Of a stretch of 64,000 bases of DNA, positions 7,500 to 53,444 are shown piece by piece. The notes beneath the pieces were generated by a model that did no database searches, had not been told where the DNA came from, and saw only the letters and a list, made by a program, of their open reading frames with translations. Numbering within the stretch: the stretch's first letter is position 1; each line of letters opens with the position of its first letter. Both the position numbers and the translations under genes were made by a program. The DNA is from an uncultured Spirochaetota bacterium (lineage in GTDB: Bacteria; Spirochaetota; Spirochaetia; SZUA-6; Fen-1364): NCBI GenBank assembly GCA_963734545.1, contig CAVTHO010000006.1, positions 256,001 through 320,000 on the forward strand. Direction: 5' to 3'.

Positions 7500-7877
7500 A
7501 TGAGCCAGGAACAGACCCCTGAACCGCGAAATGAAGATCCGCACTCTCCACGTGCTGCGTGGATTGCCGGAAGCATCCTGATCCTTCTGGGCGTCATTTT
7601 CATAATACGGAACGTTGCCGGTCTCTCCCTGGGCAACTGGTGGGCGTTGTTCATCCTGATACCCGCGCTGGGATCGCTGATGACCGCTTTCAGAATGTAC
7701 GAGCGCAACGGCCGTCGGTTCACCTCCGCGTCCCGCGGGCCCCTGATCGGCGGTCTCGTGCTTCTGGCGGTATCCGCCGTTTTTCTCTTCAACCTGGACT
7801 GGGGCAAGGTGTGGCCGCTGATCCTGATCCTCGGGGGGCTGGGCCTGCTCCTCACTTCATTCGAACGGAGACCCTGA
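7500..7877 (+). CDS. LiaF/DUF5668-like small membrane protein
   Basis: Four TM segments with WWALFILIP and VWPLILILGG repeats. Confidence 0.65.
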   Translation: MSQEQTPEPRNEDPHSPRAAWIAGSILILLGVIFIIRNVAGLSLGNWWALFILIPALGSLMTAFRMYERNGRRFTSASRGPLIGGLVLLAVSAVFLFNLDWGKVWPLILILGGLGLLLTSFERRP

Positions 7878-27556: not shown

Positions 27557-28802
27557 TCAGGACCGGACCCGCAGCCCGTATACATCTGCCAGCAGCCGCG
27601 TTGCCGCCTCCAGATTCGCCTCGCAGGCGGAAGGCATCGACACGAGCTTTTCCGCGGCCCCTGTATCCTTGAATCCCGTGCCTGTCAGGAGCACCACCAC
27701 CCGGGATTCCGGATCCACCTTGTGACGGTCCTTGAGGAATCCGGCCCACGCGGCCGCGGAAGAGGGCTCCACGAACAGGCCTGCCTCCCGGCAGAGCTCC
27801 GCCTGGGCGCTGCTGATCTCCGCGTCACTCACCTCCACCGCCCTGCCCCCCGTCTGCCGGAGAAAAGCAAGGGCCATGTGCCCGCTGGCCGGCCGGCACA
27901 CGGCAAGTGAATCCGCGATGGTCGAGGTACGAGGGAGAACGGTCTCGCGGGCATCCCTCCAGCTCTGCGCAAGGGCGTTGCTCCCCTCTGCCTGCACCGC
28001 GACCATGACAGGCATCCTGATCCGTGCAGCCCGCCTCCACGAGGTCTGCGAATCCCTTGCACGCGCCGGAGAATATGACTCCGTCCCCCGTTGGCACGTA
28101 CACCACATCCGGCACGCGGCACCCGAGCTGATTGTACAGCTCGAGGGAGACGGTCTTTTTTCCTTCCACGGTGAATGGGTTGTACGCGGTATTGCGGTTG
28201 ATGCCGCCGTATTCCCTCGTATAGGCCATGGACAGGGAAAAGGCGTCGTCATACGTGCCTTTCACGGGCACGACCCGGGCGCCGTAGAGAAGAGACTGCA
28301 GGAGCTTGGCGCGCGGCGCGGAGCCGGGCACGAAGAGCACCACGTCGAGGCCGAAGGCCGCGCCCGCGCCTGCCATGGAAGCGCCGGCATTGCCCGTGGA
28401 GGCGAGCGCCACGCGCTTTTCCCCGTGCACCCATGCCTGCGCTGCCACCAGGAGGGAGGCTCGATCCTTGAGGGATCCGGACGGATTCAGCGTGTCGTTC
28501 TTGAAAGAGAGGCGGGGAAACCCGGTTTTCTTCTGCAGAATTGCCGGGTATACCAGCGGGGTATTGCCTGCCGGATAGCTGGGAAGGTCACGGATGGGAA
28601 ACGGCAGGAACTGGAGCGGATCCACCGGGCTGCCCGGCGCCATCCTGGCTCCCGGGCGCCATACCACGGACAGGTATCCCCTGCTGAACCCCTCGGCCGG
28701 GCCATCCTTCTTCGCGGCGGCCGCGCACCAGGGGCATTCGTAGACGATCTCTTCCGACTCGAGCGTGCGGTGGCACGTCACGCACGCGTAGCGAATCTTC
28801 AC
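27557..28802 (-). CDS. Threonine synthase-like PLP enzyme (frameshift near 28020)
   Basis: N-terminal CxxC..CPxC, GNTPL, NPSGSLKDRAS, ASTGNAG, PTGDG, VEPSSAA, LLTGTGFKD. Confidence 0.85.
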
Positions 28803-30265
28803 CTTGCGGTTCCCGCCTCCCGGTTGAAGTCCTCGATCAGCTCGTCGATCCGGGGCGCCTGCTCCTGCAGCGCCGTCCAATAGCGGGCATCGGCCCACTG
28901 CGCGTTCAGCTCGTCTATCTTCTTTCCCTGCTGCTCCACCCACGTGTAGTACTTGAGATTGTGGATGCGCCTCTTCTCGGGTTGGGTGAGCTCCAGGACG
29001 TTGTCCGTGCGCTGCCCGGCAAGGCTCTCCCGATATATGCCGTTGGCCTGCGCCGCATCCAGGTCCCCGTCCTTCTTCGCGAGCTCCTGCACGCGCGAGC
29101 CGTAGAGCTCCATGGAATCCGTCAGGATGGTGACCACGACATCGTCCTCCGCGAGCTCATACCACTTGGCGAGCTTGATCGAGGCCAGGACATTCGCGAT
29201 GCCCGAGATTCCGAGCAGCGGGAGACTCTCGATGAACTTGTCCTCTGCTCCCTGGCGCGCCAGAAGCGCCTTTCCCGGTTTCTCGTTGAACAGCCGCAGG
29301 AGTCCCATGCAGTCCCGGTCATCCACGGCGATCACCGCGTCCGTGTTTCTGACGTTGTGGATCCAGGGCACGTGCTTGTCCCCGATTCCTTCGATCCGGT
29401 GCGCGCCGAAGCCGTTGCAGAGCAGCGTGGGGCACTGCAGCGCCTCGGCCGCGGCGATCTTCATCCCGGGGTGTTTCTTCTTGAGGAAATCCCCGGCCGC
29501 GATCGTTCCGGCAGACCCGGTGGAAGACACAAAGCCCTTGAGCGCGCCCTTGCCGCCCAGCACCTCCTGGAACACCCTGTCCACGGCCGCACCGGTCACC
29601 TCGTAGTGCCAGAGATAGTTTCCGAACTCTTCGAACTGGTTGAAGATCACGATATCGTCACCCCGGTCCCGGGCAAGCTCGTGGCACTTGTCGAAGATCT
29701 CCTTCACGTTGCTCTCGCTTCCCGGCGTGGTGATGACTTCCCCCGCGATCTTCGAGAGCCATTCGAATCTTTCCCTGCTCATTCCCTCGGGGAGTATGGC
29801 GATGGATTGGCAGCCCAGCAGGGCTGAATTGAAGGCGCCTCCCCGGCAGTAGTTGCCCGTGGAAGGCCAGGCAGCCTTCTGCCGGGTCGAGTCAAATGCG
29901 CCTGTCACCAGCGCCGGCGCCAGGCATCCATAGGTGGCGCCCACCTTGTGGGCGCCGGTCGGAAACCATTTTCCCACCAGCGCCACGATCCTGGCCGGTA
30001 TGCCGGTCAGCGCACGGGGTATCTCCAGGTAGTTGACCTCACCGAACAGCCCGCCGCTGGCCTGCGGCTGGTTCCGCCACGTGATGCGCTGAAGATTCAG
30101 CGGGTTCACATCCCAGAGACCCACTTTCCGCAGCGCTTCCTGGAGACTGCGCGAAACCCGGCCCGGCTCTTTCATCCCGGCGAACGTGGGCAGCACGATC
30201 CCTCTCTCCCTGCAGCGCTGGATGTTGCGCGCCCGGATATCCTTGTTGACGGTGAGGCTGATCAT
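28799..30265 (-). CDS. PLP-dependent (fold type II) cysteine synthase-like protein of ygfK/ssnA clusters
   Basis: FPTGAHKVGA, PSTGNYCRGG, STGSAGT, HRIEGIGDKH, IHNLKYYTWVEQQG. Confidence 0.8.
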   Translation of the reverse strand: MISLTVNKDIRARNIQRCRERGIVLPTFAGMKEPGRVSRSLQEALRKVGLWDVNPLNLQRITWRNQPQASGGLFGEVNYLEIPRALTGIPARIVALVGKWFPTGAHKVGATYGCLAPALVTGAFDSTRQKAAWPSTGNYCRGGAFNSALLGCQSIAILPEGMSRERFEWLSKIAGEVITTPGSESNVKEIFDKCHELARDRGDDIVIFNQFEEFGNYLWHYEVTGAAVDRVFQEVLGGKGALKGFVSSTGSAGTIAAGDFLKKKHPGMKIAAAEALQCPTLLCNGFGAHRIEGIGDKHVPWIHNVRNTDAVIAVDDRDCMGLLRLFNEKPGKALLARQGAEDKFIESLPLLGISGIANVLASIKLAKWYELAEDDVVVTILTDSMELYGSRVQELAKKDGDLDAAQANGIYRESLAGQRTDNVLELTQPEKRRIHNLKYYTWVEQQGKKIDELNAQWADARYWTALQEQAPRIDELIEDFNREAGTAR

Positions 30266-31429: not shown

Positions 31430-34400
31430 ATGAGCGATCGCATGCGCCTCGTGCCCTTCCGGGAGCTTTTTCTCAGGGCACTGGCGGAGTTCCGGGCAAA
31501 GGGATCGATATTCGACCTCCCTCTTGCGCACTTCTGGCAGTCCGCCGGCACCCGGGCCGCCCCGATATTCACCTCGCACGCCGCCAATCCCGTGGGGCCG
31601 GCTGCGGGCCCGCACACCCAGCTCAGCCAGAATATCCTCGCTGCCTGGCTGGCAGGGGGGCGCTACATCGAGCTGAAGACAGTGCAGAAGCTCGATTCGC
31701 TCACCGTCGCCAAGCCCTGCATCGACGCCGCGGACGAAGGCTACAACGTCGAGTGGTCCACCGAGCTCAGCCTCGACGAGGCCTACGACGAGTACCTCAA
31801 GGCATGGCTGCTCGTGCACTCCTTCCATACGCTCATGGGCGCGGAGCCGCGCGAACCGGAAACGCTTTTCAACATGAGCGTCGGTTACGATCTCGACGGC
31901 ATCAAGACGGAGAAGATGAACCGGATCATCGACCGGCTGATCGACTCCTCGTCCGAGCCCCTCTTCACGCGCTACCGGGAGGAGCTTGCCGCGCTGGCCG
32001 CGGACTCGCGCCTTCTGCAGGGCACGCCATGGGTTGCGCGGGCACCTTTTCTTCGCGAGCTTCCCTCCCGCATCCCTGCCCGGATCTGCGCCTCGGTCAC
32101 TCTCTCCACGATGCATGGCTGTCCCCCCGGTGAGATCGAATCGATCTGCGCGTACCTGCTTCGGGAGAAGAAGCTGGACACGCTCGTGAAGCTCAACCCC
32201 ACCCTGTTGGGGCACGAGCGCGCCAAAGAGATACTCTCCGGCCTGGGCTTCGGCTACGTGAGCCTGAACCCGGAAGGCTTTCGCAAGGACCTGCAGTACG
32301 CCGACGCGGTCCCGATGCTGACCCGGCTTCTCGGCCTGGGCAGGCAGGAAGGCAGGCACTTTGGCGCCAAGCTTTCCAATACCCTTGCGGCGGCCAACAG
32401 CAGGGGCGTGCTGCCGGGAGACGAGATGTACATGTCCGGCAGGGCGCTCTACCCGCTGACGATCACTCTCGCCGCGAGCCTTGCAGCCGATTTCAAGGGA
32501 GCGCTGCCGCTCTCGTTTTCCGGCGGTGTGTCCGCCTGGAATATCGGCGAGGTGCTGGAGGCGGGCATACGGCCCATCACGCTTGCCACGGACCTGCTGA
32601 AGCCCGGCGGATACGGAAGGCTGAAAGAGCTTGCGGAAACGGCGGAGAAACACGCGGCGGCATGGGGCACACGGCGCGTGGATGCCCGGGGGCTTGGACG
32701 CGCAGCGGAAGCCGTGCGCGGCGCCCCGTCACGCTCAGAAAGGACTTCCGCGGCGCCGGCGAAGGTCCACGTCGAGGGACCGCTTCCCCTGTTCGATTGT
32801 TTCGTCGCGCCGTGCATGCATGCCTGCCCGATCTGCCAGGATGTTCCCGAGTACGTGCACCTGGCCGGCGCAGGCAGGTTCGAGGAAGCATTCGAGGTCA
32901 TCTACAGGCGCAACCCGCTCCCCTTCATGACAGGCTATCTCTGCGACCATCAGTGCACGCAGAACTGCACGCGCATGGACTGGGAAGGGTCTGTCCGGAT
33001 ACGGGAAGTCAAACGGGTCGCCGCGGAGAGAGGCTACGACGCCTATCGGTCCAGCGGCAGGCTGGCCGCGCGGAAGGCGGCGCCGAGGGGAGTGAAAGCA
33101 GCCGTCGTCGGCGCCGGTCCGGCGGGGCTGGCCGCCGCGTCTTTCCTGGCGCGCGAGGGCTTCGAGGCGCACGTGTTCGAGCGGGAGAGCGAGCCGGGAG
33201 GGATCGTGCGCTGGCTCCTGCCCGGGTTTCCGCCTGCCCGCCGCCTCTGTGGAGAAGGACGTGTCCCTGCTGACGGACCTGGGGGTCCGGTTCCACTTCG
33301 GCGTGAAGGAAAAGCCGCGCGTCGGGCAGCTGAATGCGGAAGGCTTCCGTTACGTGCTTGCCGGTATCGGCGCGGAAGCGGACAAGAGATCGGCATCGAG
33401 GGGGCGCGCGAGGCGTTCGCGTTCCTCCGCGCAGTTCAGGAAGGACCCGTCCTCCCTGCGTCTCGGACGTTCCGTCGTGGTCGTCGGGGCGGGAGACACC
33501 GCAATGGATGCGGCGCGCGCCGCAAAGCGCTGCAAGGGCGTGAAGGTCGTGCGGATCGTCTATCGCAGGTCGGAGCGCGAAATGCCTGCCTCCGCGGAAG
33601 AGTACGCCTCCGCGCGGGAGGAGGGGATCCTGTTTCATTTCCTGCGCGCGCCGGAGCGCTGGTCGGCGGAGGCCGGCCTCGTCTGCCGCGTGATGGAGCT
33701 GGGCCCTGAAGATCAGACCGGCCGCTCCCGTCCGGTGCCCACGGAAGCGCGCGAGACCCTGCCGGCCGACACCCTCATCACCGCGCTGGGCGCCGAGGTG
33801 GACAGCAGGGGGCTCGAGAGTCTCGGGCTGCCTCCCGACAAGGCCGCGATAGACGCGCGCACCCAGGAAACCGGAGTGCCCGGATTGTTTCTCATCGGGG
33901 ACGCGGCGGCCGGGGCAGAGACCATCGTAAAGGCGATTGCCTCGGCGCGAAGGGCGGTGGATGCAGTCTGCGCGCAGGAATCCGGGCGCACGGCACCCCC
34001 TCGCGCGCCGGAGAGCGCGGGCGCCGGCAGGGCGCCTGCCTGGGATGTGCCTGCGGAAGATACCACCCGGCTGCGCACCCTGCGTGACCGGCTGATACCG
34101 GTGTCTGCCGCGGGCGCCGATGATGACGAGGTCAGGGACACGGAATCGCGGCGCTGTCTCGGCTGCAGGGCGCTGTGTCTCAAGTGCGTCGAGGTCTGTC
34201 CGAACAGGGCCAACACGTTCATACGCGTGGAGGGCTTCAGCGACGAGGCGCAGATCGTTCACCTCGATGCGTTCTGCAACGAATGCGGGAACTGCGCCAC
34301 CTTCTGCCCGTGGGAGGGACGGCCATACAGGGACAAGCTCACCGTCTTCGAAAATGAAGCGGACTTCCGTGACAGCACCAATCCCGGCTTCTTCCTCCGA

Positions 34401-34556
34401 AGGGGCAGGGGCATGGTCCGGATGGACGGCCGGGTCCGGGACCTGCTGGTGGACGCGGCGGGAAACGTGACGGAAGGCATGGACAAGGGCTCCGCAAAAG
34501 CGGTGGTGAGCGCGATTGTGCGCGACTACCCCTACCTTCTCGGAGAACAGCAATGA
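31430..34556 (+). CDS. ygfK: YgfK family Fe-S flavo-oxidoreductase (frameshifted)
   Basis: GPAAGPHTQLSQNI, KPCIDA.DEGYNVEWSTEL, GAGPAG, C-terminal CVEVCPNRAN and CNECGNC. Confidence 0.9.
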
Positions 34557-35875
34557 TCGTATTGAAAAATGCCACGCTCGTGCACCTGCACCCCGCCGAG
34601 GTGACTCCCGGCGTCGATGTCGTGATCGACGGAACAGAGATACGGACGGTGGGGCGGGCCGCCTCGGAAGCGTTGAAGGCGGAAAGGACCATCGACCTGG
34701 CGGGCCGCATCGTCATGCCGGGCCTCGTGTGCAGTCATGACCATTTCTACTCCGGTCTTTCCCGCGGCATCATGGCACGGATCGCGGCGAGCACCGACTT
34801 TGTTTCCACGCTGCAGAACCTCTGGTGGCGCCTGGACAAGGCGCTGGACGCCGACGCGCTGCAGTCCAGCGGCATGGTCTGCGCGATGGACGCGGTCAAG
34901 GCGGGCTGCACGGCCGTTATCGATCATCACGCATCCCCTTCCTTCATCACCGGCTCCCTGGAAATGCTGAAGGGATGCTTCGAGAAGGTGGGGCTCCGCG
35001 GGGTCCTCTGTTACGAGACCACGGACCGGAACGGTCCGGAAGGCTTGAAGCGGGGGGTGGAAGAGAACCGCAGCTTTGCCGGGCTGGTGGAGGAGGAGAA
35101 GAAAAGCCGGGGCGGGCAGCGGCTGGTGGAAGCGATGATCGGCGGACATGCCCCCTTCACACTTTCCAATGACGGTCTTGCGGCGCTTGCGGATGTCGTG
35201 TCGGCCACCGGACGCGGATTCCACGTGCACGCCGCGGAGGATGCGTTCGACGTTTCCTTTTCCCACGGCGCGTACGGCAAGGATCCTTTGCGCAGGCTGG
35301 ACGAGTTCGGCCTTCTCTCCGACAAGTCCCTGGTGGCGCACGGCCTGTACCTCACCGCCGCGGACCGGGAGATCCTCAACGTGCGCGGGGCATTTCTCGC
35401 CCACAACTGCCGCTCGAACATGAACAACCACGTCGGCTACAACGCCGAGCTGCCCCGGGTGAAGAACGTGGCGCTGGGCACCGACGGGATCGGCTCCGAC
35501 ATGCTCCTGGAGACCAAGTTCGCCTATTTCCGCCACCGTGACGCGGGAGGCCCTCTCACGCCGGGCGCCTTCATGCGTTTCCTCCAGAGCGGAAACGAGA
35601 TCCTGCATCGCTGCTTTGGTGAGAGCTTCGGCAGGGTGGAGGAGGGCTACAAGGCGGACCTCGTCATCCTGGACTACGACGCGCCGACCCCTCTCGTGCG
35701 CGAGAATGTCGCCGGTCATGCGATCTTCGGCATGGGAAGCAGGGACGTGGACACGGTGATCGTGAACGGCAGGATCATCATGGAGAGCAGGTCGTTCCGA
35801 TGGGACACGGCGCCCGTCTATGCGGCGGCCCAGGCAGCCGCGAGATCGCTCTGGCAGAAAATGGACCAGGCCTGA
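34553..35875 (+). CDS. ssnA: SsnA family amidohydrolase
   Basis: SHDHFYSGL, LWWRLD, IDHHAS, HAPFTL, HVHAAE, SNMNNHVGY, LGTDG. Confidence 0.9.
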   Translation: MIVLKNATLVHLHPAEVTPGVDVVIDGTEIRTVGRAASEALKAERTIDLAGRIVMPGLVCSHDHFYSGLSRGIMARIAASTDFVSTLQNLWWRLDKALDADALQSSGMVCAMDAVKAGCTAVIDHHASPSFITGSLEMLKGCFEKVGLRGVLCYETTDRNGPEGLKRGVEENRSFAGLVEEEKKSRGGQRLVEAMIGGHAPFTLSNDGLAALADVVSATGRGFHVHAAEDAFDVSFSHGAYGKDPLRRLDEFGLLSDKSLVAHGLYLTAADREILNVRGAFLAHNCRSNMNNHVGYNAELPRVKNVALGTDGIGSDMLLETKFAYFRHRDAGGPLTPGAFMRFLQSGNEILHRCFGESFGRVEEGYKADLVILDYDAPTPLVRENVAGHAIFGMGSRDVDTVIVNGRIIMESRSFRWDTAPVYAAAQAAARSLWQKMDQA

Positions 35876-36168: not shown

Positions 36169-36540
36169 TTGTCGAGATTCCAGAGCCCGGCCGCCCAGGC
36201 GGCCGACCAGCCTTTCCATTGCATCAATTGCAGCCAGCTCGTTCTGATCGCGTCCGCCGGGACGGACCAGAGAAATCATTGCCCCCACTGCCTGTGGAGC
36301 CTGCACGTCGACTTCCAGAATGGCGACAGGCGCTCCGCCTGCAGATCCCCCATGGAGCCCATCTCGGTGTGGGTGAAGCACAATGGCGAGTGGGCGGTGG
36401 TGCATCGCTGCAGGGAATGCGGCGCCCTGCGCGCAAACAGGATTGCGGGAGACGATAACGAGGTAATCCTCTTGTCCCTCGCTCTCAAGCCGCTTGCCCG
36501 GCCGGCGTTCCCCCTGGAGCGCCTGCGGCTGCCTACGTGA
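36169..36540 (+). CDS. RNHCP domain protein
   Basis: FHCINC, QRNHCPHCLWSLHVD, HRCRECG, NRIAGDDN. Confidence 0.92.
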   Translation: MSRFQSPAAQAADQPFHCINCSQLVLIASAGTDQRNHCPHCLWSLHVDFQNGDRRSACRSPMEPISVWVKHNGEWAVVHRCRECGALRANRIAGDDNEVILLSLALKPLARPAFPLERLRLPT

Positions 36541-36616: not shown

Positions 36617-37261
36617 TCATTCGTTCTGCGGCGGTGGTGCCCTGCGGCGTGCCCTCGAGTCCAGCCTCTCGTCGCGCTGGCGGAATCGGAGCCACCTCTT
36701 CAGCCCTCTTTCGATCAGCATCATGACGTCGTCGGTGAGATCTTCCGTGTAGGGCCCGGGTATGTTGAGCGGAAGGGTCGTGAAGATCGCGATGAGCATC
36801 CTTTTCGGATTGCGGAAAAGGCTGGTGCGGAACACTCCTCTGCGCGTACCCTCTGCCAGGATCTCCTCAATGAGCTCTTCGATGCGCCCGAAGAGCGTGC
36901 TCCCGCTGCTCACCCTGTCCTCCAGCCCCGGATAGATGTACCGCCTCTCCCCGGTGTAGATGCCCCGCAGGATCTGGTTGCTGCGCAGGCTGAGGGTCGC
37001 ATAGCGAAAGAGCGCTTTCAGCCGGAAGAGGGGGGAGTGGAGGCTGTTCACGTGCTTTTCCATGTCGCGGATTCCGCGCTGCTCGATCGTGTCCAGGATG
37101 GCGGAGTAGAAGGCCTCCTTGCTGGGGAAGTAGGTATAGAAGCTGCCCATGCCGAGCCCCGCCGCATCCGTGATGTCCCTGATGCTGACATCGCGGTAGC
37201 CGTGCTGGGCAAAGAGCCGCTCGCCGATCCGGAGCAGGGTGTCCGTGCGGTTTCTTTCCAT
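36617..37261 (-). CDS. TetR/AcrR family transcriptional regulator
   Basis: LFAQHGY..VSIRDIT.AAGLGMGSFYTYFPSKE HTH. Confidence 0.92.
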   Translation of the reverse strand: MERNRTDTLLRIGERLFAQHGYRDVSIRDITDAAGLGMGSFYTYFPSKEAFYSAILDTIEQRGIRDMEKHVNSLHSPLFRLKALFRYATLSLRSNQILRGIYTGERRYIYPGLEDRVSSGSTLFGRIEELIEEILAEGTRRGVFRTSLFRNPKRMLIAIFTTLPLNIPGPYTEDLTDDVMMLIERGLKRWLRFRQRDERLDSRARRRAPPPQNE

Positions 37262-37439
37262 GAATCTCCCCTGGTGACGGACCGGATGCCGCGGTCAAAT
37301 ATCCGGCTTCTTCCCGTTTTCGACGGCCTCCGGCATGCGGCGGCGCGCCGGAGCCTCGTGAAACCCGCGTTTTTGGCACATCCGGCGCCGCGGGCGTTGA
37401 CACTACCCCGCGTGGAAAACAGTCTCGTGTGGGGAGAGT

Positions 37440-38765
37440 ATGAAAGCGCTGGAAAAAAGACAAGCAACCGAACCCCACTACGTGCTGGCGTGTCCCGTCT
37501 GCGGCGGGACGTACGAAGACTCTCCCGATGAGTTTCTTCTCTCCTGTCCCGCGCCGCATCCCCCGGCCCTGCTGCGCGCGGTCTACCGGGAAAAGAAGCT
37601 CAAGGCGCATCCCGAGCATTCAGGGGTCTTCCGGTTTTTCGACTGGCTCCCCATCAGGCGGCGGCTCCCCGGTGCCGCGGGCCCGGCCGTGTACCGCAGC
37701 ACCGGTCTGGGTCCGCTCCTGGGGCTGAACAACCTGTTCGTCGTATTCAACGGCTGGTGGCCCGAGAAGGGCGCCCGGATGGAAACCTGTACGTTCAAGG
37801 AGCTGGAGGCCCAGGCGGTGTGCGGCAGGATCATGGACGGCTGGGAGTCCGCCCTTGTCGTATCCTCCGCGGGCAACACGGCGCGCGCTTTCCACCACGC
37901 CTGCAGCCGCTACGACGTGCCGGCGCTGATCGTGGTTCCCCGCCGCGGCATGTCGATGCTCTGGGGCACCGGCGCGCGCCGCCCGGAATGTGCGCCTGGC
38001 GGTGATCGACGGGGGCGCCGACTACGCCGACGCCGTCGAGCTGGGCAACGGGATTGCCGGCACCGAGGGCTACTACTCGGAGGGCGGCGCGCGCAATGCG
38101 GCGCGGCGGGACGGCATGGGCACGACGGTGCTCTCCGCCGTGGAAGCTGCCGGAGTGATTCCCGATCACTACTTCCAGGCGGTCGGCAGCGGGACGGGCG
38201 CCATCGCGGCATGGGAGATGAACCTGAGGCTGCTGGAGGACGGACGTTTCGGCAGCAGGAAGATGAGGCTGCACCTTTCGCAGAACGCGCCCTTCACCCC
38301 GATGACGGATGCGTGGGAGGCAGGCTCCCGCACGCTTGCCGTCGAGCCGTCACCGAGGCGCGGGCCCGGTCCCACGCCATCCGCGCGCAGGTCCTGGGCA
38401 ACAGGAACCCGCCGTATTCCGTGACGGGCGGTCTCTATGACGCGCTTCGCGACACGGACGGCTGCATGTACCGGGTGACGAACGAGGAAGCGCGCAACGC
38501 GGGCCTGCTCTTCGAGGAGTGCGAAGGCAGCGATATCGATCCTGCCGCGGAAGTGGCCGTGGCGTCGCTGCTGGAGGCCGCGCGCGGGGGACGCATCCGG
38601 CCCCGGGACGCCGTTCTGCTCAACATCACGGGGGGCGGGCGGCGCAGGCTCCTTGCCTCGCGCAGAACGGCGGCGCTGCGGGAAGACGCCACATTCACGA
38701 TCGAGGAGCTGCGCACGGACGGCCCCGCGCGCGGCCTGCGGCTGCTCCGGGAGGCCCTCGCGTGA
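37440..38765 (+). CDS. Cysteate synthase (two frameshifts)
   Basis: FNGWWPEKGARMETCTFKELEA (PLP Lys), SAGNTARAF, EGGARNAARRDGMGT, YFQAVGSGTG, SQNAPF, LLNITGGG. Confidence 0.85.
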   Translation: MKALEKRQATEPHYVLACPVCGGTYEDSPDEFLLSCPAPHPPALLRAVYREKKLKAHPEHSGVFRFFDWLPIRRRLPGAAGPAVYRSTGLGPLLGLNNLFVVFNGWWPEKGARMETCTFKELEAQAVCGRIMDGWESALVVSSAGNTARAFHHACSRYDVPALIVVPRRGMSMLWGTGARRPECAPGGDRRGRRLRRRRRAGQRDCRHRGLLLGGRRAQCGAAGRHGHDGALRRGSCRSDSRSLLPGGRQRDGRHRGMGDEPEAAGGRTFRQQEDEAAPFAERALHPDDGCVGGRLPHACRRAVTEARARSHAIRAQVLGNRNPPYSVTGGLYDALRDTDGCMYRVTNEEARNAGLLFEECEGSDIDPAAEVAVASLLEAARGGRIRPRDAVLLNITGGGRRRLLASRRTAALREDATFTIEELRTDGPARGLRLLREALA

Positions 38766-40007
38766 ACGATATTTTCGAGAAGACCCGGACCGACGGCGGC
38801 TACTTCGGCGATTTCCGCGCCGCCGGGGACATGTACTTCTCCCAGCCGATCCTCGACGGCGACCCGGGACCCCGGATGAAGTTCCAGGGCAAGGACGTCA
38901 TCGTCTGGGCCATCAACAACTATCTCGGCATCTCCGGGCAGGCCGGAGCTCACTGCCGCGGCCGCGGAGGCCGTAAAGCGCTACGGGCCCAGCGCCCCCA
39001 TGGGCTCGCGCCTGCTCACCGGCAACACGCGGGAGCACATCGAGCTGGAGAGGAAGCTGGCCGCGTTCTGCCGCAAGCCTGCCTCGATCGTGTTCAACTA
39101 CGGCTACCTCGGCGTGCTGGGCACCGTCTCGGCGCTGGTGGGCCCCGAGGACATCATCGTCATCGACTCTCTCTCCCACGCCTCCATGATCGACGCCACG
39201 CTGCTCGCCTCGGCCGGCCGGCGCTTTCGGCCGTACAAGCACAACAACATGGAGGACCTGGAGTCGCACCTGCAGGCCGCGGCAAAGGACCGCAAGGGCG
39301 GGATCCTCGTCGTGACCGAGGGCGTGTTCGGGATGAAGGGCAACTGCGCCCGGCTCGCCGATATCTGCGCGCTCAAGGAGCGCTACGGCGCGCGCCTGTT
39401 CGTGGACGACGCGCACGGGTTCGGCGTCATGGGCGCGGAGGGCCGCGGAACGGGTGAGCACTTCGGCGTGCAGGACAAGATCGATCTGTACTTCGGCACG
39501 TTCGCCAAGGCGTTTGCCGCAATCGGCGGGGTGACGGCGGGTGACTCCGACGTGGTGGAGTGGGTGCGCTACAATGCGCGGACAAACGTGTTTGCCAAGG
39601 CCCTGCCCATGGTGTACGTGAAGACCGTGGAAAAAGCGCTCTCCATCGTCGAAGGGGAACCGGAGCTGCGCAAAAAGATGTGGCACATCGCGCGCATGCT
39701 GCAATCAGGGCTGGTGGACCTGGGGTTCGACATCGGGGAACCCGAGTCCCCGATCACGCCGGTGTACGTGGTGGCGGGCGACGAGAAGACGGGCATGGCG
39801 CTCATGACCATGCTGCGCGAGGATTACGGCATATTCGTGTCCGGTGTGACATACCCGGTCGTGCCCCACGGCGTGTTTCTCTGCCGCATGATCCCCACCG
39901 CCGCGCATACCGAGGAAGACGTGCAGAAAACGCTCGACGCGTTCCGCCAGATGCGGGACCGGATGAAGCTGGATCTGTCGACAAAGCCGTCCCGGCAGAA
40001 CGGATAG
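38762..40007 (+). CDS. Alpha-oxoamine synthase, probable cysteate C-acyltransferase (CapB/SulA-like); frameshift near 38940
   Basis: DIFEK..GYFG..YFSQP.L.G..GPRMKF.GK.VIVWAINNYLG N-terminus; SHASMID, VDDAHG, GTFAKAF; GTGA overlap with cysteate synthase. Confidence 0.75.
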
Positions 40008-40237: not shown

Positions 40238-41431
40238 ATGTATTTCTCAGATTTTTCCCTCGCAAAGGAGCTTCAGGCCGCTGCGCGGCGCATGGGCTTC
40301 GAACAGCCCACGCCCATCCAGGAGACGGCCATTCCGGCCGGCCTGTCGGGACGTGACGTCCTGGCCAGCGCGGAGACGGGCAGCGGCAAGACCGCCGCCT
40401 TCCTGCTTCCGATCATGCACAAGCTTCTGCCCATGCAGCGCGGCGCCACTCGCGCGCTCGTTGTCGCGCCCACGCGGGAGCTTGCCGCGCAGATCGCCGA
40501 TCACTTCCGCGAGCTTGCCGCCGGCACCCGCCTGACCTGCGCCGCCGTACACGGCGGAGTGGCAATGGGCGCGCAGGAGCGCGCGTTCCGCAAGGGCGTG
40601 GACATGGTCGTCGCCTGCCCCGGCAGGCTCCTGGACCACATGCGCAACAGCTACGTGGACCTGTCCGGCATCCAGTTCCTCGTCATCGACGAGGCTGACA
40701 GGATGCTCGACATGGGCTTCCTGCCGGACATCAAGCGCGTTCTCGCCGCGGTGCCCAGGAACAGGCAGACGTTCTTCTTCTCCGCCACGCTCCCCCCGGC
40801 CATCGTCACGCTGTCCCGTGAGCTGCTTCGAAGGACCCGGCCAGGCTGAACATCGACAGGAAGCCGGCGCCTGCCACCGGCATCACCCACTCGGTGTTTC
40901 CCGTGCCTTCAGACCGAAAGTCCAACCTGTTCCTCGAGCTGCTGGGCAAGGGGATCACGGGAAGCGTTCTCGTGTTCACCCGCACGAAGCACCGGGCGAA
41001 CAGGCTCGCCGATTTCCTGGACCAGCAACGGCGTGCGGTGCGCGCGGATCCACGGGAACCGCAGCCAGTCACAGCGCACCGCGGCGCTTGCCGGCTTCAA
41101 GCAGGGCAAGTTCCAGGTCCTCGTGGCCACGGACATCGCCGCGCGCGGCATCGACGTGGAGGCGCTGGGCTCGGTGGTGAACTTCGACGTTCCCCACCAG
41201 CCCGAGGACTACATCCACAGGGTCGGCCGCACGGCGCGGGCCCAGCTCACCGGTGACGCGCTGACCCTCGTTTCTCCCGAGGAGGAGAGGGATTTCGGCG
41301 CCATCGAGCGCGCGCTGGGCAGGCGCCTGCCCCGGCAGAAAGTGGAAGGTTTCGACTACACGTCGAAGCCGACGGTGACGCAGAGGCCTGCCCCCCGCCG
41401 GCAGAGGCAGGCGCCGCGCCGCGCGCGCTGA
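40238..41431 (+). CDS. rhlE: DEAD-box RNA helicase, RhlE-like (frameshifts)
   Basis: PTPIQ, AETGSGKT, PTRELA, DEADRMLDMGF, SAT, ARGID, YIHRVGRTAR. Confidence 0.88.
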
Positions 41432-46878: not shown

Positions 46879-47004
46879 GAAGACGCCTCCTTCTTTGCCA
46901 CAATAGTAGCCATGAACACTTTCCTAATGCAAGGGAAAGCGCCGCGAGGAGGCCCGAGTGACTCATCCGCCCATGCAGTGATAGAATGAAGGAAAGGGGA
47001 TATC

Positions 47005-49157
47005 GTGCCGGAGGACGCAAGGATCGTATCGGGGCACTGCGGACTCTGCCCGTCCGGGTGCGCCGTCCGGATTTCGGTGGAAGGCAACCGGATCGGCAAA
47101 GTCGTGCCGCAGAAGCGCCGCCCGGATGCGGTGAGCTGCGCCCGGGTCAGCCATGCGGCCGACATCGTGCATGCGCCGGACCGGCTCCTGTATCCGCTGA
47201 AAAGGGCGGGCGCCCGGGGGAAAACCGTTTCGTGCGGATAAGCTGGGCAGAGGCCCTCGACACGATTGCCGTCGGGCTTCAGGATGTTGCGCGCCGGCAG
47301 GGCCCGCAGGCGGTCTGCATGTACACGGGCCGCGGAACATTCGAGAGGTCGCTCTGGGAGATGCTTGCCCCTGCCGGTGTGCGTGAAACGAGCGCCTGGA
47401 GCCTGCTCTTTCCGTTCGGCTCGCCCAACACGACCGGGGCCGGTTCCAACTGCTACGTGAGCCACGCGGTCCTCGCCCCTGCCGTCACGTTCGGCGTCTG
47501 GTGGGCGGACACGCTGCCTGATCTGGAAAACTCCCGGCTCATCGTGGTCTGGGGCACGAACCCCGCCAATGCCTCCCCTCCCGTGCTGATGCGCCGGATC
47601 GAAAAGGCCGTGCAGCGGGGGGCCAGGGTCGTGGTGATCGATCATCGACGCACCGAAACCGCCCGGCGCACCGGCGCGCAGTGGCTCGCAATCCGGCCCG
47701 GCACGGACGGCGCGCTGGCGCTTTCCATGATCCACGTGCTCATTGAAGAGGGGCTGCACGATCGGGAGTTCGCGGAGCGCTGGACCGTGGGCTTCGACGA
47801 GCTTCGAGCTTATGTCGCCGGCTTTCCGCCTGAAAAGGCCGAAGAGATGACCGGCATTCCTGCAGAGACCATCCGCGAGACGGCAAGGGCCATTGCGGCC
47901 TCCGGCGGCGCCGCCCTTCTTTCCTATACCGGGCTGGAATACACGAACAGCGGCGTGCAGAACATACGCGCGGTCAAGATACTCTGGAGCCTGTCAGGCA
48001 ACCTCGATGTCCCGGGCGGGAATCTCATCAAGATGCCGGACACTGATTTCAAGGTGAATACCGGCCATCGCCTCGAGCCGCCATCCGGCGTCGATCCGAT
48101 CGGGAAGAGCAAGTATCCCCTCTACCATCTTTTCAGAAAAGAAGCCCATGCAATGGAGCTGCCCACGGGCAATCCTCCACGATGACCCGTACCCGGTGCG
48201 CGCAATGCTGGTGTGGGGCGCGTCGATCATCACCGGCTATCCCAACCCCGGCCTGTGGCGGCGCGCTTTCTCCGCGCTCGACTTTCTTCTCGTGGTGGAC
48301 CGTTTTCCCACAGAGGACTCGCGCTACGCGGACATCATCCTGCCCGCTGCCACGTCCTTCGAGGAGGATTCCTACCTCATCTCGGGCCGCCGCGTGGAGC
48401 TGCGCCGCAAGGTCATCGAGCCGCAGGGGGAATCGCGGAGCGACTGGGACATCGTCGCGGCGATTGCCGGCAGGCTCGGATACGGTCACCTCTTCCCGCG
48501 CTCGTCCCGGGAAATGCTGCGCTGGGCGTTCGAGGGAACAGAGATCGACCTGGAGGAGCTGGAGAAGACCGGAGAGGTATCGCTCCCGGTTTCTCCCATG
48601 CGCTACCGCAAGTGGGAATCCGGACTCCTGCGCCGGGACGGGAAGCCCGGGTTCGACACGCCGTCCGGCAAGCTCGAGATTGCCTCGAGCATCCTGAAAG
48701 AAAACGGATACGACCCCCTGCCCGGTCTATGCACCGCCCCGGGAAGGGCCTTCGGCGGCCCCCGGGCTTTCCCGGGAGTTTCCCCTCGTGTTCAATTCAG
48801 GCTCGCGCAACAAGACTTTCTTCAACTCCCAGCACCACAACATCGCGCGCCTCGCCGCGCAGAGACCCAATCCCCAGGCGTGGATGAATCCGCGCGATGC
48901 GCGCCCTCGCGGCATTGCGAGCGGCGATGCCGTGGACGTGGTGACCCCGAGAGGCCGTGTCCGATTCGAGGCTTTTGTCACGGAGGATATCGCTCCGGGA
49001 GCCGTGGAGGTGGACGCATCCGGCGGCGGCCCGCTGGGACCCCGGTCCTGGAGGGAAGCCAATGTGAACGAGCTGACGGACAGCGAGAATCGGGACCCGC
49101 TCTCCGGTTTCCCGGTTTACAAAGCGCTGCTCTGCGACGTGCGCAAATCCAGTCTAG
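47005..49157 (+). CDS. Mo/W-bisPGD oxidoreductase catalytic subunit (frameshifts; end approximate)
   Basis: CGLCPSGC..C Fe-S motif, DRLLYPLKR, WGTNP, IRPGTDGAL, ADIILPAAT, TPSGKLE, DPLSGFP; no Tat signal seen. Confidence 0.85.
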
Positions 49158-50572
49158 AGCCCGAGCACCTTTTCCACTTCCCGGGCCATCTTGTCCGGGA
49201 GGGGCGTGCCCGGGTGGCTGTCCATGAGGGCCAGCGTCTTGTCCCTCACCCTGGCGTGAAGGTCTTTCGAGCCCGAGGATTGCCAGCCGTCAAAACGCTG
49301 CCGGTCGAAAAGCGTCGGCTGCCAGAACTCACGGAAATGATTCAGCGTGTGATCCTCGCCCAGAAAGTTTCCTCCCGGGCCCACGGCGTGCACGACATCC
49401 AGGGCAAGGGACTCCTCATCGATGGAGAACCCGCGGGCGAAATGCCTCATCATGCCGATCATGTCCGCCGTGAATACCATCATCTCCGGCGAGGTGATGA
49501 GCCCCGCCTCCAGGTATCCCACGTCATGGACGAGGTTCGTTCCGCCCAGCATGGCGGTCTGGACCGAAAAGACGGCGTCCGCCGCGGCCTGCTCGTCGAA
49601 CAGGATTCCGTCCGTGTGCCCCGCATAGCCCCAGCTCGGCAGGCCGTAGTACCGGCCCATGCACGCCACCGCGACCCGCGCAAGCTGGAACTCGGGAGCC
49701 CCGTACACGCTGATGGACGTTTTCATGTCCAGGTGGTGCAGACCGCTTCCATAGAGAAAGGGCGCGCCGGCGCGTTTCATCTGCTGAATGACCAGGCTGC
49801 TCAGCACTTCGGCGTTTCCCAGGGCGAGCCCTCCCGCGAGCGTCACGGGCGCCGTGCTGCCCATCATGGGGGCAGGTGAATGCACGACGGGCAGGCCCTG
49901 CTCCGCCATGTAGAGGAGCTTCTCGGTGGCGGTGCGGCTGTGCTGCAGCGGCGTGGTGGGCTCCGAGTACAGCAGCAGCGTGGGGTTGAGCCTCAGCTTC
50001 TCCATCCCGCCTGCCACCATGGCCGCGGCCTCCGCAATGGCGCGGCAGTCCGACTCGTCGTCGCACACGAAGACAACGGGTTTCACGCTGTTCTCTATGA
50101 GGGTGGCATACTGCCTGCGGTAGGTGCGGCCGGTGAAATCCCGCGGTATGCCCATGGACATGAGGAATGAAAGCTCGGGAAGAGCGTCGACCAGGCGCGC
50201 GCAGGCCTTCAGGTCCGCGAGGGTGAACGGCCGCCGCTCCCCGGTGCGGGGATCCAGGTAGTTGGGACAATCGGAACCGGGACCAAAGCTCGTCTCACCG
50301 GGGCGCAGCGCCACGGTGGCCCTGTCCGTGCCGCGCTCACAGAGGGCGATCTCGGAGGGGGCCTGCTTCAGGGCCCACTCGGCAAGTCCGGGTGGAATGC
50401 GCACCAGGTTGCCGTCGGTCACGGGGCAGCCGGAGTCGCGAAGCAGCGCAAGTGCTTCCTCGTGGTGCACCCGGACACCAGTCCGTCTCAAGATCTCGAG
50501 GGAGGCGTGGTGAATCATGTCGCACTGGGCCCGGTCCATGAGCTGAAGGGAGGGAATTGCGCGTGAAGTCAT
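49154..50572 (-). CDS. MttB superfamily (non-pyrrolysine) corrinoid methyltransferase
   Basis: IHHASLEIL, APVTLAG, GAPEFQ, DEQA, GYLEAG, VGPGGNFL...HT; no in-frame TAG. Confidence 0.88.
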   Translation of the reverse strand: MTSRAIPSLQLMDRAQCDMIHHASLEILRRTGVRVHHEEALALLRDSGCPVTDGNLVRIPPGLAEWALKQAPSEIALCERGTDRATVALRPGETSFGPGSDCPNYLDPRTGERRPFTLADLKACARLVDALPELSFLMSMGIPRDFTGRTYRRQYATLIENSVKPVVFVCDDESDCRAIAEAAAMVAGGMEKLRLNPTLLLYSEPTTPLQHSRTATEKLLYMAEQGLPVVHSPAPMMGSTAPVTLAGGLALGNAEVLSSLVIQQMKRAGAPFLYGSGLHHLDMKTSISVYGAPEFQLARVAVACMGRYYGLPSWGYAGHTDGILFDEQAAADAVFSVQTAMLGGTNLVHDVGYLEAGLITSPEMMVFTADMIGMMRHFARGFSIDEESLALDVVHAVGPGGNFLGEDHTLNHFREFWQPTLFDRQRFDGWQSSGSKDLHARVRDKTLALMDSHPGTPLPDKMAREVEKVLGL

Positions 50573-52581: not shown

Positions 52582-53444
52582 GTGGATACCACGGGAAGAA
52601 GCGTTGTCGTCACGGGGGTTTCCACCGGCATCGGCAATGGAATAACCCGCGTGCTGGTCCGGCAGGGCGTCCATGTCTTCGGAAGCGTGCGCAGGCGGGA
52701 GGACGCCGCGCGCCTCTCCGCGGAGCTCGGCAGCGGGTTCACCCCGCTGCTGTTCGACGTGACGGACACGCGCGCCATTGCGGCAGCCGTCGACCTCGTC
52801 CGAAAGAGCCTTTCCGGTGCCACCCTCATGGGCCTGGTCAACAATGCCGGCATCTCCGTGTTCGGGCCCCTGATGTACGTGCCCCTTGATGAGTTCCGCC
52901 GGCAGCTCGAGGTGAACCTCGTGTCCGTGCTCGCCGTGACCCAGGCGTTCCTCCCGCTGCTCGGCGCCGACCGGTCCCTGAGCCGGTGCCCCGGGGAGAA
53001 TCGTCAACATGGGTTCGGTGGGCGGGAAAATCGCGGCGCCGTTTCTCGGACCATATGCCGCTTCGAAGTTCGCCCTGGAGGGCCTGTCGGAGAGCCTGCG
53101 CCGCGAGCTGATGCTTTTCGGGATAGACGTCATCGTGATCGGCCCGGGAGCGGTGGCCACGCCGATCTGGGACAAGGCCGAGCGTGAAGACACCAGCTCG
53201 ATTCGAAGGCACCGAATATGCCGCCCCGCTTCGAAAGTTCGGGGCCTACTTTCTGAAGGAAGGCAAGGCGGGCTATCCGCCGGAGCGCGTCGGTGCGGTC
53301 GTGTGGCGCGCGCTTTCCCGCGCCCGTCCCCGGGTCCGCTATGCGGTTGTTCCTCACGTGCTGCGGGGCTGGATCATTCCTCGACTTCTTCCCAAGCGCC
53401 TCATTGATCGAATCATCGGAAGGAGCACCGGCCTCAGCACCTGA
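52582..53444 (+). CDS. SDR family oxidoreductase (frameshifts)
   Basis: TGVSTGIG, LVNNAG, YAASKFALEGLSESLRREL. Confidence 0.88.

Follow-up and report, generated by a model that had tools for sequence, protein, structure and literature searches.

An overlapping gene pair for a cysteate synthase and a CFAT/SulA-like acyltransferase points to capnine-type sulfonolipid base synthesis in an uncultured Spirochaetota bacterium

The pathway for capnine-type sulfonolipids is known under two sets of names, CapA/CapB/CapC and Cys/CFAT/KCR. In chemotaxonomy and metabolite analysis, sulfonolipids serve as markers of Bacteroidota, including Alistipes, Odoribacter, and the Cytophaga-Flavobacteria group. They have been linked to gliding, choanoflagellate development, and immune modulation connected with TLR4 (PMC11525784, PMC9304779, PMC11211663). 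As described in a review, Alistipes and Odoribacter have an archaeal-type cysteate synthase together with the acyltransferase SulA, and sulfonolipid synthesis appears to be limited to Bacteroidota (PMC10191378). In this work, we analyzed a pair of overlapping genes in a stretch of 64,000 nucleotides (hereafter the window: positions 256,001 to 320,000 of contig CAVTHO010000006.1, assembly GCA_963734545.1) from an uncultured Spirochaetota bacterium. The first gene encodes an archaeal-type cysteate synthase, and the second encodes an alpha-oxoamine synthase similar to SulA and CapB, a candidate cysteate C-fatty-acyltransferase (CFAT).

In a gut survey, 9633 genomes were prioritised, of which 9632 belonged to Bacteroidota and one to Firmicutes_A (PMC11525784). 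A structural study of CapB mentions CFAT homologues in “multiple bacterial lineages”, and Bacteroidota groups alone are named in the text consulted (PMC13692747). In the relevant passages of a further report, ceramide sulfonates are given for P. gingivalis, P. brevis, and C. albicans, with no spirochaete among them (PMC11052126). No spirochaete sulfonolipid pathway was found in the literature searched; the supplements of PMC11525784 and PMC13692747 may list non-Bacteroidota homologues.

The likely function of the gene pair is the synthesis of a 3-ketocapnine-like sulfonated long-chain base; full sulfonolipid production in Spirochaetota is probable, with less certainty than the synthesis of the base. 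In the proposed mechanism, the overlapping genes would be a regulated operon that builds the head-group half of a sulfonolipid of the capnine type, where the synthase makes cysteate and the acyltransferase joins it to a fatty acid. As judged from its clade, its signature residues, and the gene coupling, the acyltransferase, which depends on pyridoxal phosphate (PLP), would form an external aldimine with cysteate. This intermediate would react with a long-chain acyl thioester, either acyl-acyl carrier protein (acyl-ACP) or acyl-coenzyme A (acyl-CoA), and lose CO2 to yield a 3-keto sulfonated base. The ketone would then be reduced by an unlinked short-chain dehydrogenase (SDR), and an N-acyltransferase could acylate the product. 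As a guess, a divergent TetR-family regulator would act as a repressor of both genes that responds to a lipid-like ligand.

A preliminary description of the locus, made from the letters of the stretch alone, had proposed a methanogen-type cysteate synthase translationally coupled to an alpha-oxoamine synthase, a divergent TetR gene, and an organism outside Bacteroidota, and all four elements were upheld. The acyltransferase start codon GTG at 38762 overlaps the synthase stop codon TGA at 38763-38765, and the two closest related loci, L001 and L002, have an ATGA overlap at the same position. The TetR gene lies on the opposite strand upstream of the synthase (Table 1). The closest loci come from metagenome-assembled genomes (MAGs) labelled Spirochaetota, Spirochaetaceae, Spirochaetales, and Spirochaetia, with protein identities of 96% for L001 and 94% for L002, which assigns the organism to Spirochaetota by its closest relatives; the genome search likewise treats the genome as belonging to a phylum whose families resemble those of spirochaetes. 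For comparison, the best 80 related loci in a species-representative genome collection were used: L001-L023 are the closest, and L024-L080 are Bacteroidota-like.

Among solved structures, the acyltransferase matches CapB best (PDB 28eh, 351.2 bits by phmmer, over residues 61-402), followed by SulA (7u7h, 328.8 bits), serine palmitoyltransferase (SPT; 3a2b, 248.8 bits), Kbl (205.7 bits), and BioF (at most 167 bits); its identity to CapB and SulA, as read from the alignments, is about 50%. None of the NCBIfam equivalog cut-offs for Kbl, SPT, BioF, or ALAS was reached. The scores against the respective cut-offs are 299.7 vs 460 (NF005394) and 254 vs 493 (TIGR01822) for Kbl; 286.8 vs 426.45 (TIGR00858) for BioF; and 297.7 vs 640 (NF047600), 272.9 vs 500 (NF047599), and 205.9 vs 670 (NF047603) for SPT. 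The full-length L001 protein also falls short of the SPT model (314 vs 640), with similar shortfalls for the other models. Together, the two frame pieces of the window gene encode 414 amino acids, which is the usual length among the best homologues; most of the best 120 in the protein collection have 413-414 residues. Names attached to these homologues are mostly “glycine C-acetyltransferase” at JGI and generic at NCBI.

A maximum-likelihood tree of 61 proteins was inferred by a careful search, in which the window protein carried an X at the frame break. Its rows are the acyltransferases of the 23 closest loci and of 17 Bacteroidota-like loci (40 of the 57 were omitted for size), eight SPTs above the NF047600 cut-off, Kbl-like paralogues, and Kbl and BioF of E. 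coli. Because none of five Bacteroidota genomes with a CFAT-like gene had an SPT above the cut-off, the SPT references came from a broader sampling of this order, in which 11 of 41 genomes carried one. The window enzyme falls into a CFAT-like clade of 41 rows (support 100/100), which is composed of a Bacteroidota clade (17 rows, 100/100), a group of Chlamydiota and unplaced bacteria (3 rows, 100/100), and a Spirochaetota-plus-Bacillota clade with the window enzyme (21 rows, 99/98). The SPTs (8 rows, 100/100), the Kbl proteins (11 rows, 100/97), and E. coli BioF lie outside it. The Bacteroidota clade was anchored by a Rikenellaceae protein (L052) that scores 502 bits against SulA and 500 against CapB, in a tree drawn without the characterised enzymes themselves. 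On these grounds, the window enzyme can be assigned to the CFAT/SulA/CapB type and not to BioF, Kbl, or SPT. The preliminary description had judged it closer to Bacteroidota CFATs than to BioF or Kbl by an N-terminal motif, which is found in the translation, and this judgement agrees with both the tree and the model scores. Close copies of the acyltransferase were also seen in MAGs titled Dehalococcoidales (L011), Methanocomedens (L048, a 2-kb contig), and Dadabacteria (L076); their nesting within the clades of spirochaetes or Bacteroidota suggests mis-binning of the contigs and not transfer.

Active-site residues point in the same direction. In its active site, SulA is described as differing clearly from SPT at a single residue, Lys281, where SPT has Ala, and the K281A variant is inactive; with 16:0-ACP, SulA is reported to give a product of m/z 362.2 with a fragment of 80.9 (Radka et al. 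2022, PMC9304779). CapB has been solved with the PLP-cysteate aldimine, and its pocket residues are listed (Pang et al. 2026, PMC13692747). In our alignment, the equivalent position (280 in CapB) is Lys in all 41 CFAT-like rows and in 0/20 rows of SPT, Kbl, and BioF, where it is Ala (8/8 SPT rows), Asn (11/11 Kbl rows), or Thr (E. coli BioF). Several further positions separate the window enzyme from the SPT rows: Tyr-Gly-Tyr vs Thr-Gly-Phe at CapB positions 113-115, Val vs Asn at the position of SPT Asn117, Glu vs Asp at 187, Phe vs Met at 245, and Ala vs Ser at 249. In this comparison with SulA and CapB, the SulA/CapB signature, including Lys280, is kept.

The assignment of the first gene is based on the equivalog model TIGR03844, which matches all three of its frame pieces, and on the motifs TCTFKELEA and RRDGMGT, which are present in the translations. 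The pieces score 162.7, 166.0, and 122.8 bits and cover model positions 1-158, 163-279, and 285-390 of 398 in order; taken singly, all of them stay below the cut-off of 324.9 bits. The intact orthologue in L001, which is 88-95% identical to the three pieces, reaches 485.4 bits. Copies above the cut-off were found in 20 of 41 genomes of the same order, among them intact copies in 16 of 20 genomes of the same genus, compared with one of 14 control genomes (Methanosarcina acetivorans) and three of 41 sampled Bacteroidales genomes. At E <= 1e-40, the model matched in none of the five Bacteroidota genomes carrying a CFAT-like gene, presumably because they are incomplete or rely on a different type of synthase. 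A synthase tree of 23 rows (quick search) places the three Bacteroidales synthases among the bacterial sequences and leaves the archaeal synthase of a Methanocomedens MAG, which scores 599.7 bits, outside them. Because its core spirochaete clade is also that of the acyltransferase tree, the synthase and the acyltransferase seem to travel as a unit.

Gene linkage in the relatives provides a third type of evidence. The synthase gene lies directly upstream of the acyltransferase gene in 17 of the 23 closest loci (L001-L011, L013, L014, L016 of Anaerofustis, L017 of Sporobacter, L020, and L023 of Oceanispirochaeta), an adjacency that spans Spirochaetota, two Bacillota, and one unplaced bacterium. 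In the genome of L022 the synthase is encoded elsewhere (524 bits), and no copy was detected in the genomes of L015, L018, and L021 by a search that took in the genomes of these four loci; the other two loci without an adjacent synthase are L012 and L019. Among the 57 Bacteroidota-like loci, some of which are short, none showed a synthase at up to about 8 kb from the acyltransferase, and no acyltransferase was found within 1.5 kb of the synthase in the three Bacteroidales loci. The locus L012 (a Spirochaetales MAG) is the only core spirochaete locus in which no adjoining synthase was found; upstream of position 7824, it has a Kbl-like paralogue at a distance of about 1.6 kb.

The wider contexts in the relatives (Table 1) are those expected of a capnine-type pathway, and this argument is independent of the residues and the tree. 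As predicted from its gene content, the operon shared by L020 and L023 would hold everything for the route from sulfate via sulfite and cysteate to the keto-base. Directly downstream of it in L023, a fusion of branched-chain keto-acid dehydrogenase and FabH domains may supply branched fatty-acid primers. The SDRs linked to the acyltransferase in L017 and L015 score 139 and 169 bits on the 3-ketodihydrosphingosine reductase model, below its cut-off of 400.

Table 1. The gene pair and its surroundings in the window, and gene arrangements in related loci (positions with no locus prefix refer to the window; aa, amino acids; PAPS, phosphoadenylyl sulfate; APS, adenylyl sulfate)
Feature	Location	Strand	Basis or remark
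TetR-family regulator	36617-37261	minus	Pfam TetR_N, 52.9 bits; divergent from the gene pair
TetR-synthase intergenic region, presumed promoter/operator	37262-37439		position between divergent genes
Archaeal-type (threonine-synthase-like) cysteate synthase	37440-38765	+	TIGR03844; three frame pieces: 37440-~37983, ~37987-38346, ~38347-38765
GTGA start/stop overlap, translational coupling	38762-38765	+	read from the sequence
CFAT/SulA/CapB-like alpha-oxoamine synthase, candidate cysteate C-fatty-acyltransferase	38762-40007	+	PF00155, 149 bits
Acyltransferase frame pieces	38762-38938 (59 aa), 38940-40007 (355 aa)	+	
PLP (Schiff-base) lysine codon	39507-39509	+	aligned with CapB Lys250 and SulA Lys251; Lys in 61/61 rows
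Discriminating lysine codon	39597-39599	+	aligned with CapB Lys280 and SulA Lys281
PAPS/APS reductase, synthase, acyltransferase	L014	one strand	
cysD, cysN-cysC fusion, synthase, acyltransferase, cysH	L020, L023		
1123-aa fusion with E1 dehydrogenase, transketolase-like, lipoyl, and FabH (KAS III) domains	L023:10438-13809		directly downstream of the operon
PAPS reductase divergent from the pair, then TetR and ApbA/PanE-type reductase	L007		
Synthase, acyltransferase, SDR, glyoxalase-fold protein	L017		
TetR, glyoxalase-fold protein, acyltransferase, SDR	L015		

Two other protein families recur beside the acyltransferase. A two-domain glyoxalase/VOC-fold protein of about 355 amino acids, with no NCBIfam match, is encoded next to it in both Bacillota loci L017 (9906-10982) and L015 (1958-3067) and may have an accessory role in the pathway; a homologue with 48% identity is present in the genome of the window on contig C3 (166117-167166; L102:7112-8170), unlinked to the pair. 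As a possible sulfite supply, a gene next to this glyoxalase-like gene on C3 was tried as a sulfoacetaldehyde acetyltransferase and rejected, the encoded thiamine pyrophosphate (TPP) enzyme being a biosynthetic acetolactate synthase (TIGR00118, 642 bits vs a cut-off of 538). ApbA/PanE-type 2-keto reductases flank the acyltransferase in L007 (9742-10761) and L022 (6620-7666), both on the minus strand, and a homologue with 32-34% identity is located in the genome of the window at C9:188854-189870; these proteins are alternative candidates for the keto reduction.

The regulator could be described in general terms. The TetR protein reached no NCBIfam equivalog cut-off, the top match being AcuR (45.9 vs 247). 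In 11 of the 23 closest loci, a TetR homologue (44-95% identity) is the companion of the pair; this gene is divergent and upstream in L001-L003, L005, and L006, and downstream in L007-L010, L012, and L013. A consensus scan of the intergenic region found no sigma-70-like site, and a scan of the same region found a single 8-nt inverted repeat, GCGCCGGA/TCCGGCGC, at 37345-37352 and 37381-37388, with a putative role.

Several points weigh against the proposed base synthesis, and they are taken here together with the alternatives that they would favour. Neither gene of the pair is read in one frame in the window. The references were L001 and L002, syntenic relatives with 86-90% nucleotide identity over the aligned blocks, in each of which both genes are single open frames. 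Compared with them, the window carries a surplus base at about 37984-37986 and lacks one at 38347, which leave the synthase with no uninterrupted frame, and carries a second surplus base at about 38935-38938 in the acyltransferase; the intact orthologues are 91-96% identical. These three frameshifts could be real, and in that case the genes would be a decaying pseudogene pair from a lost pathway, perhaps for want of sulfite. This alternative, which we consider unlikely, draws on the three frame breaks within 2.6 kb and on the lack of a sulfite source among the genes found: the genome, which is 89% complete, yielded no match to PF01507 (the PAPS reductase/CysD family) and none to PF01077 (sulfite reductase), and a tblastn search of it with the cysD, cysH, and PAPS reductase sequences of the relatives returned nothing. 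A molybdopterin oxidoreductase in the window (46986-49227), tried as a sulfite supply, could not be assigned: its best matches are Fdh-alpha (154 bits) and PhsA (136 bits), both far below the cut-offs.

Several observations argue that the frameshifts are most likely assembly errors. Unrelated neighbours are broken alike: a ygfK-like gene (31430-34556) is split into two open reading frames (ORFs) and has three indels at 33229-33430, a DEAD-box helicase gene (40238-41431) is split into three, with +2 at about 40826-40831 and +1 at 41025, and an SDR gene at 52582-53444 is spread over three frames. Such split genes across the window indicate an error-prone assembly, and the 10 contigs for 5.1 Mb suggest that it was a long-read assembly. 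The molybdopterin oxidoreductase is also read in two frames, for which a selenocysteine TGA is possible instead. With the frames restored, the ratios of nonsynonymous to synonymous substitution rates (dN/dS), computed against L001 and L002, are 0.07-0.31 over all five pieces, with 0.073-0.17 for the synthase and 0.069-0.085 for the C-terminal piece of the acyltransferase. The middle synthase piece, whose frame would be lost with genuine shifts, gives 0.073-0.077. The intact synthase in most genomes of the same genus also speaks against decay.

Public metagenomes were used to check the frames at the level of contigs. Runs with near-identical words come from wetland, peat, and sediment metagenomes; among 24 runs, the best holds 0.35 of the words of the stretch and none holds half or more, so the frames were checked on relatives, a circumstance that leaves a very recent inactivation as an unlikely alternative. 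No RNA data set was listed as holding the stretch. Contigs from four wetland-metagenome runs are 90-99% alike, which identifies these runs as representing relatives, not the source itself. All four runs have contigs without the extra base near 37982-37985, and the extra base at 38934 is absent in X4, the sole run with a clean call; the contigs of X1 and X2 begin at 38935 with 11 unaligned letters. The base behind 38346 is present in two of the three runs with cover, and the X1 contig is without it, as is the window. Since the neighbours are broken alike, the assembly resembles a long-read one, the dN/dS values are low, and contigs of relatives lack the indels, we read the frameshifts as assembly errors, and on this reading the pair is taken as functional in the organism.

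The reductase is the second gap in the proposed pathway, as no SDR gene adjoins the pair in the window and none is assigned. The SDR at 52582-53444, which the preliminary description had offered as a weak, non-adjacent candidate, proved to be no stronger than that: its similarity to the linked SDRs of L017 and L015 is partial, with 28-44% identity. The best match to these SDRs in the genome (C9:143636-144436, 40% identity) is not favoured because it is encoded beside a class-III aminotransferase, PTPS, and glycosyltransferases; our guess is that it belongs to a different pathway. In both Chryseobacterium gleum and Alistipes finegoldii, several unlinked SDRs are described as having 3-ketocapnine reductase activity (PMC11211663), and for this reason an unlinked reductase is no strong objection.

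Sequence does not disclose how long the acyl substrate is, and the window clade, whose function is predicted, is a sister (99/98) of the characterised Bacteroidota clade and not nested in it. Both points leave a place for a second alternative, in which cysteate or another small acidic amino acid is condensed with a short or unusual acyl donor to give a soluble sulfonated amino-ketone, such as a signal, an osmolyte precursor, or a natural product, and not a lipid. Control by a TetR protein and the lack of a linked N-acyltransferase would fit a small-molecule pathway, and CAI-1 synthase, a signal-making alpha-oxoamine synthase, is among the PDB matches at 79 bits. We nevertheless hold a soluble product to be improbable, given that the Bacillota member L017 matches CapB over its whole length (residues 1 to 400) and the window enzyme has the thumb domain. 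Furthermore, L017 and L015 have linked SDRs similar to 3-ketodihydrosphingosine reductase, and the dehydrogenase/FabH fusion downstream of the L023 operon would suggest a supply of branched primers.

Three residues of the window enzyme depart from those of Bacteroidota CFATs (Ala82 to Ser, Cys141 to Ser, and Met277 to Val) and either resemble SPT or vary; Ser, Ser, and Val occupy these positions in the window and in all 13 core spirochaete rows. The CapB variant C141A retains roughly 19-48% activity, and Ala82 and Met277 lie outside the portion of the alanine scan available from that study (PMC13692747). An ordinary SPT, Kbl, or BioF beside a synthase with some other use, e.g., in coenzyme M or taurine-type sulfonate synthesis, could call on Ser82 and Ser141 and on the JGI name of most homologues, and is hardly credible in view of the missed equivalog cut-offs, the separation from all three families with 100/100 support, the CFAT-like residues Lys280, Glu187, Phe245, and Ala249, the synthase adjacency in 17 of 23 loci, and the separate Kbl-like paralogues of the genome (e.g., C9:168861-169871).

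Other genes around the pair were noted in passing. A CysK/CBS-like PLP enzyme of 488 amino acids with an N-terminal extension is encoded at 28799-30265 on the minus strand, at a distance of about 7 kb from the gene pair, and reaches no equivalog cut-off (CysK 107 vs 351). Upstream lies a putative selenium-metabolism pair (31430-35875), in which SsnA is above its cut-off (552 bits on TIGR03314) and YgfK is below (753 bits on TIGR03315 vs 835), probably because it is broken, followed by an RNHCP-domain protein at 36169-36540. On contig C3, SelA and SelB (GTPase plus winged helix) are read in one frame of 1060 amino acids (L102:2707-5889, minus strand), which is either a fusion or an assembly artefact. 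An MttB-family methyltransferase is encoded in one open frame at 49154-50572 on the minus strand (TIGR02369, 380 vs 525).

The acyltransferase trait is patchy within Spirochaetota. In an even sample of 301 Spirochaetota genomes, which included the genome of the window, 23 had a match at E <= 1e-100; one family accounted for matches in 15 of its 17 genomes, and large families had none (0/45, 0/38, and 0/28). We lean cautiously towards a broader interpretation, in which Spirochaetota and Bacillota would share a sister clade of cysteate acyltransferases outside Bacteroidota, each tied to an archaeal-type synthase and some forming part of a sulfate-to-sulfonolipid operon, and sulfonated sphingoid lipids would be a widespread membrane or signalling component in anoxic wetlands, peat, and mats. 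Bacillota such as those represented by the Anaerofustis- and Sporobacter-labelled MAGs presumably have no outer membrane. If this interpretation is true, sulfonated sphingoid lipids would not be a marker of Bacteroidota, their role in Bacillota would be apart from outer membranes or gliding, and sulfonolipid signals in environmental lipidomics would have to be read differently. The compact operons would couple sulfate activation to the synthesis of a lipid head group, and the assignment would correct the mis-annotation of these enzymes as “glycine C-acetyltransferase”. The homologue with 69% identity in a named and cultured organism, Salinispira pacifica (WP_455382366.1), makes the prediction open to ordinary lipidomics.

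Compared with the known systems, the locus is closest in enzyme content to that of Alistipes finegoldii and Odoribacter, where the same two enzyme types occur, including a SulA-type PLP enzyme with Lys281 (7u7h); in Alistipes finegoldii the reductase is described as unlinked (PMC11211663), as it would be here. The differences are the phylum, the sequence distance (329 bits to SulA vs 502 for the Rikenellaceae orthologue, in a sister clade), and the gene order, since the synthase and acyltransferase genes overlap here, whereas no such adjacency was found in the Bacteroidota loci compared. The best solved relative of the window enzyme is CapB of Capnocytophaga ochracea (28EH/28FA), with which it shares Asn52, Gly81, Gly114, Tyr115, His139, Glu187, Asp216, His219, Phe245, Thr247, Ala249, Lys250, Phe278, and Lys280; besides the three replacements at 82, 141, and 277, it differs from CapB in having Tyr for Phe113, as most Bacteroidota rows do. 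Cysteate in C. ochracea is reportedly made by CapA, a relative of cystathionine beta-synthase. Bacterial SPT (Sphingobacterium multivorum 3A2B; NF047600) has in common with the window enzyme the fold-type I alpha-oxoamine synthase scaffold and, as predicted for the latter, an external aldimine, a decarboxylative Claisen-type condensation, and a long-chain acyl donor, and differs from it by Ala at 280, Asn117, Asp187, Met245, and Ser249, and by its separate clade and its lower score in the search of solved structures. The methanogen cysteate synthase of the coenzyme M pathway belongs to the equivalog TIGR03844, whose model also matches the window synthase piece by piece; the window synthase is coupled to a lipid-type acyltransferase instead of coenzyme M genes. 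Because Alistipes and Odoribacter already combine an archaeal-type synthase with SulA, the combination of enzymes is known, and what is new at this locus is the phylum and the form of the operon.

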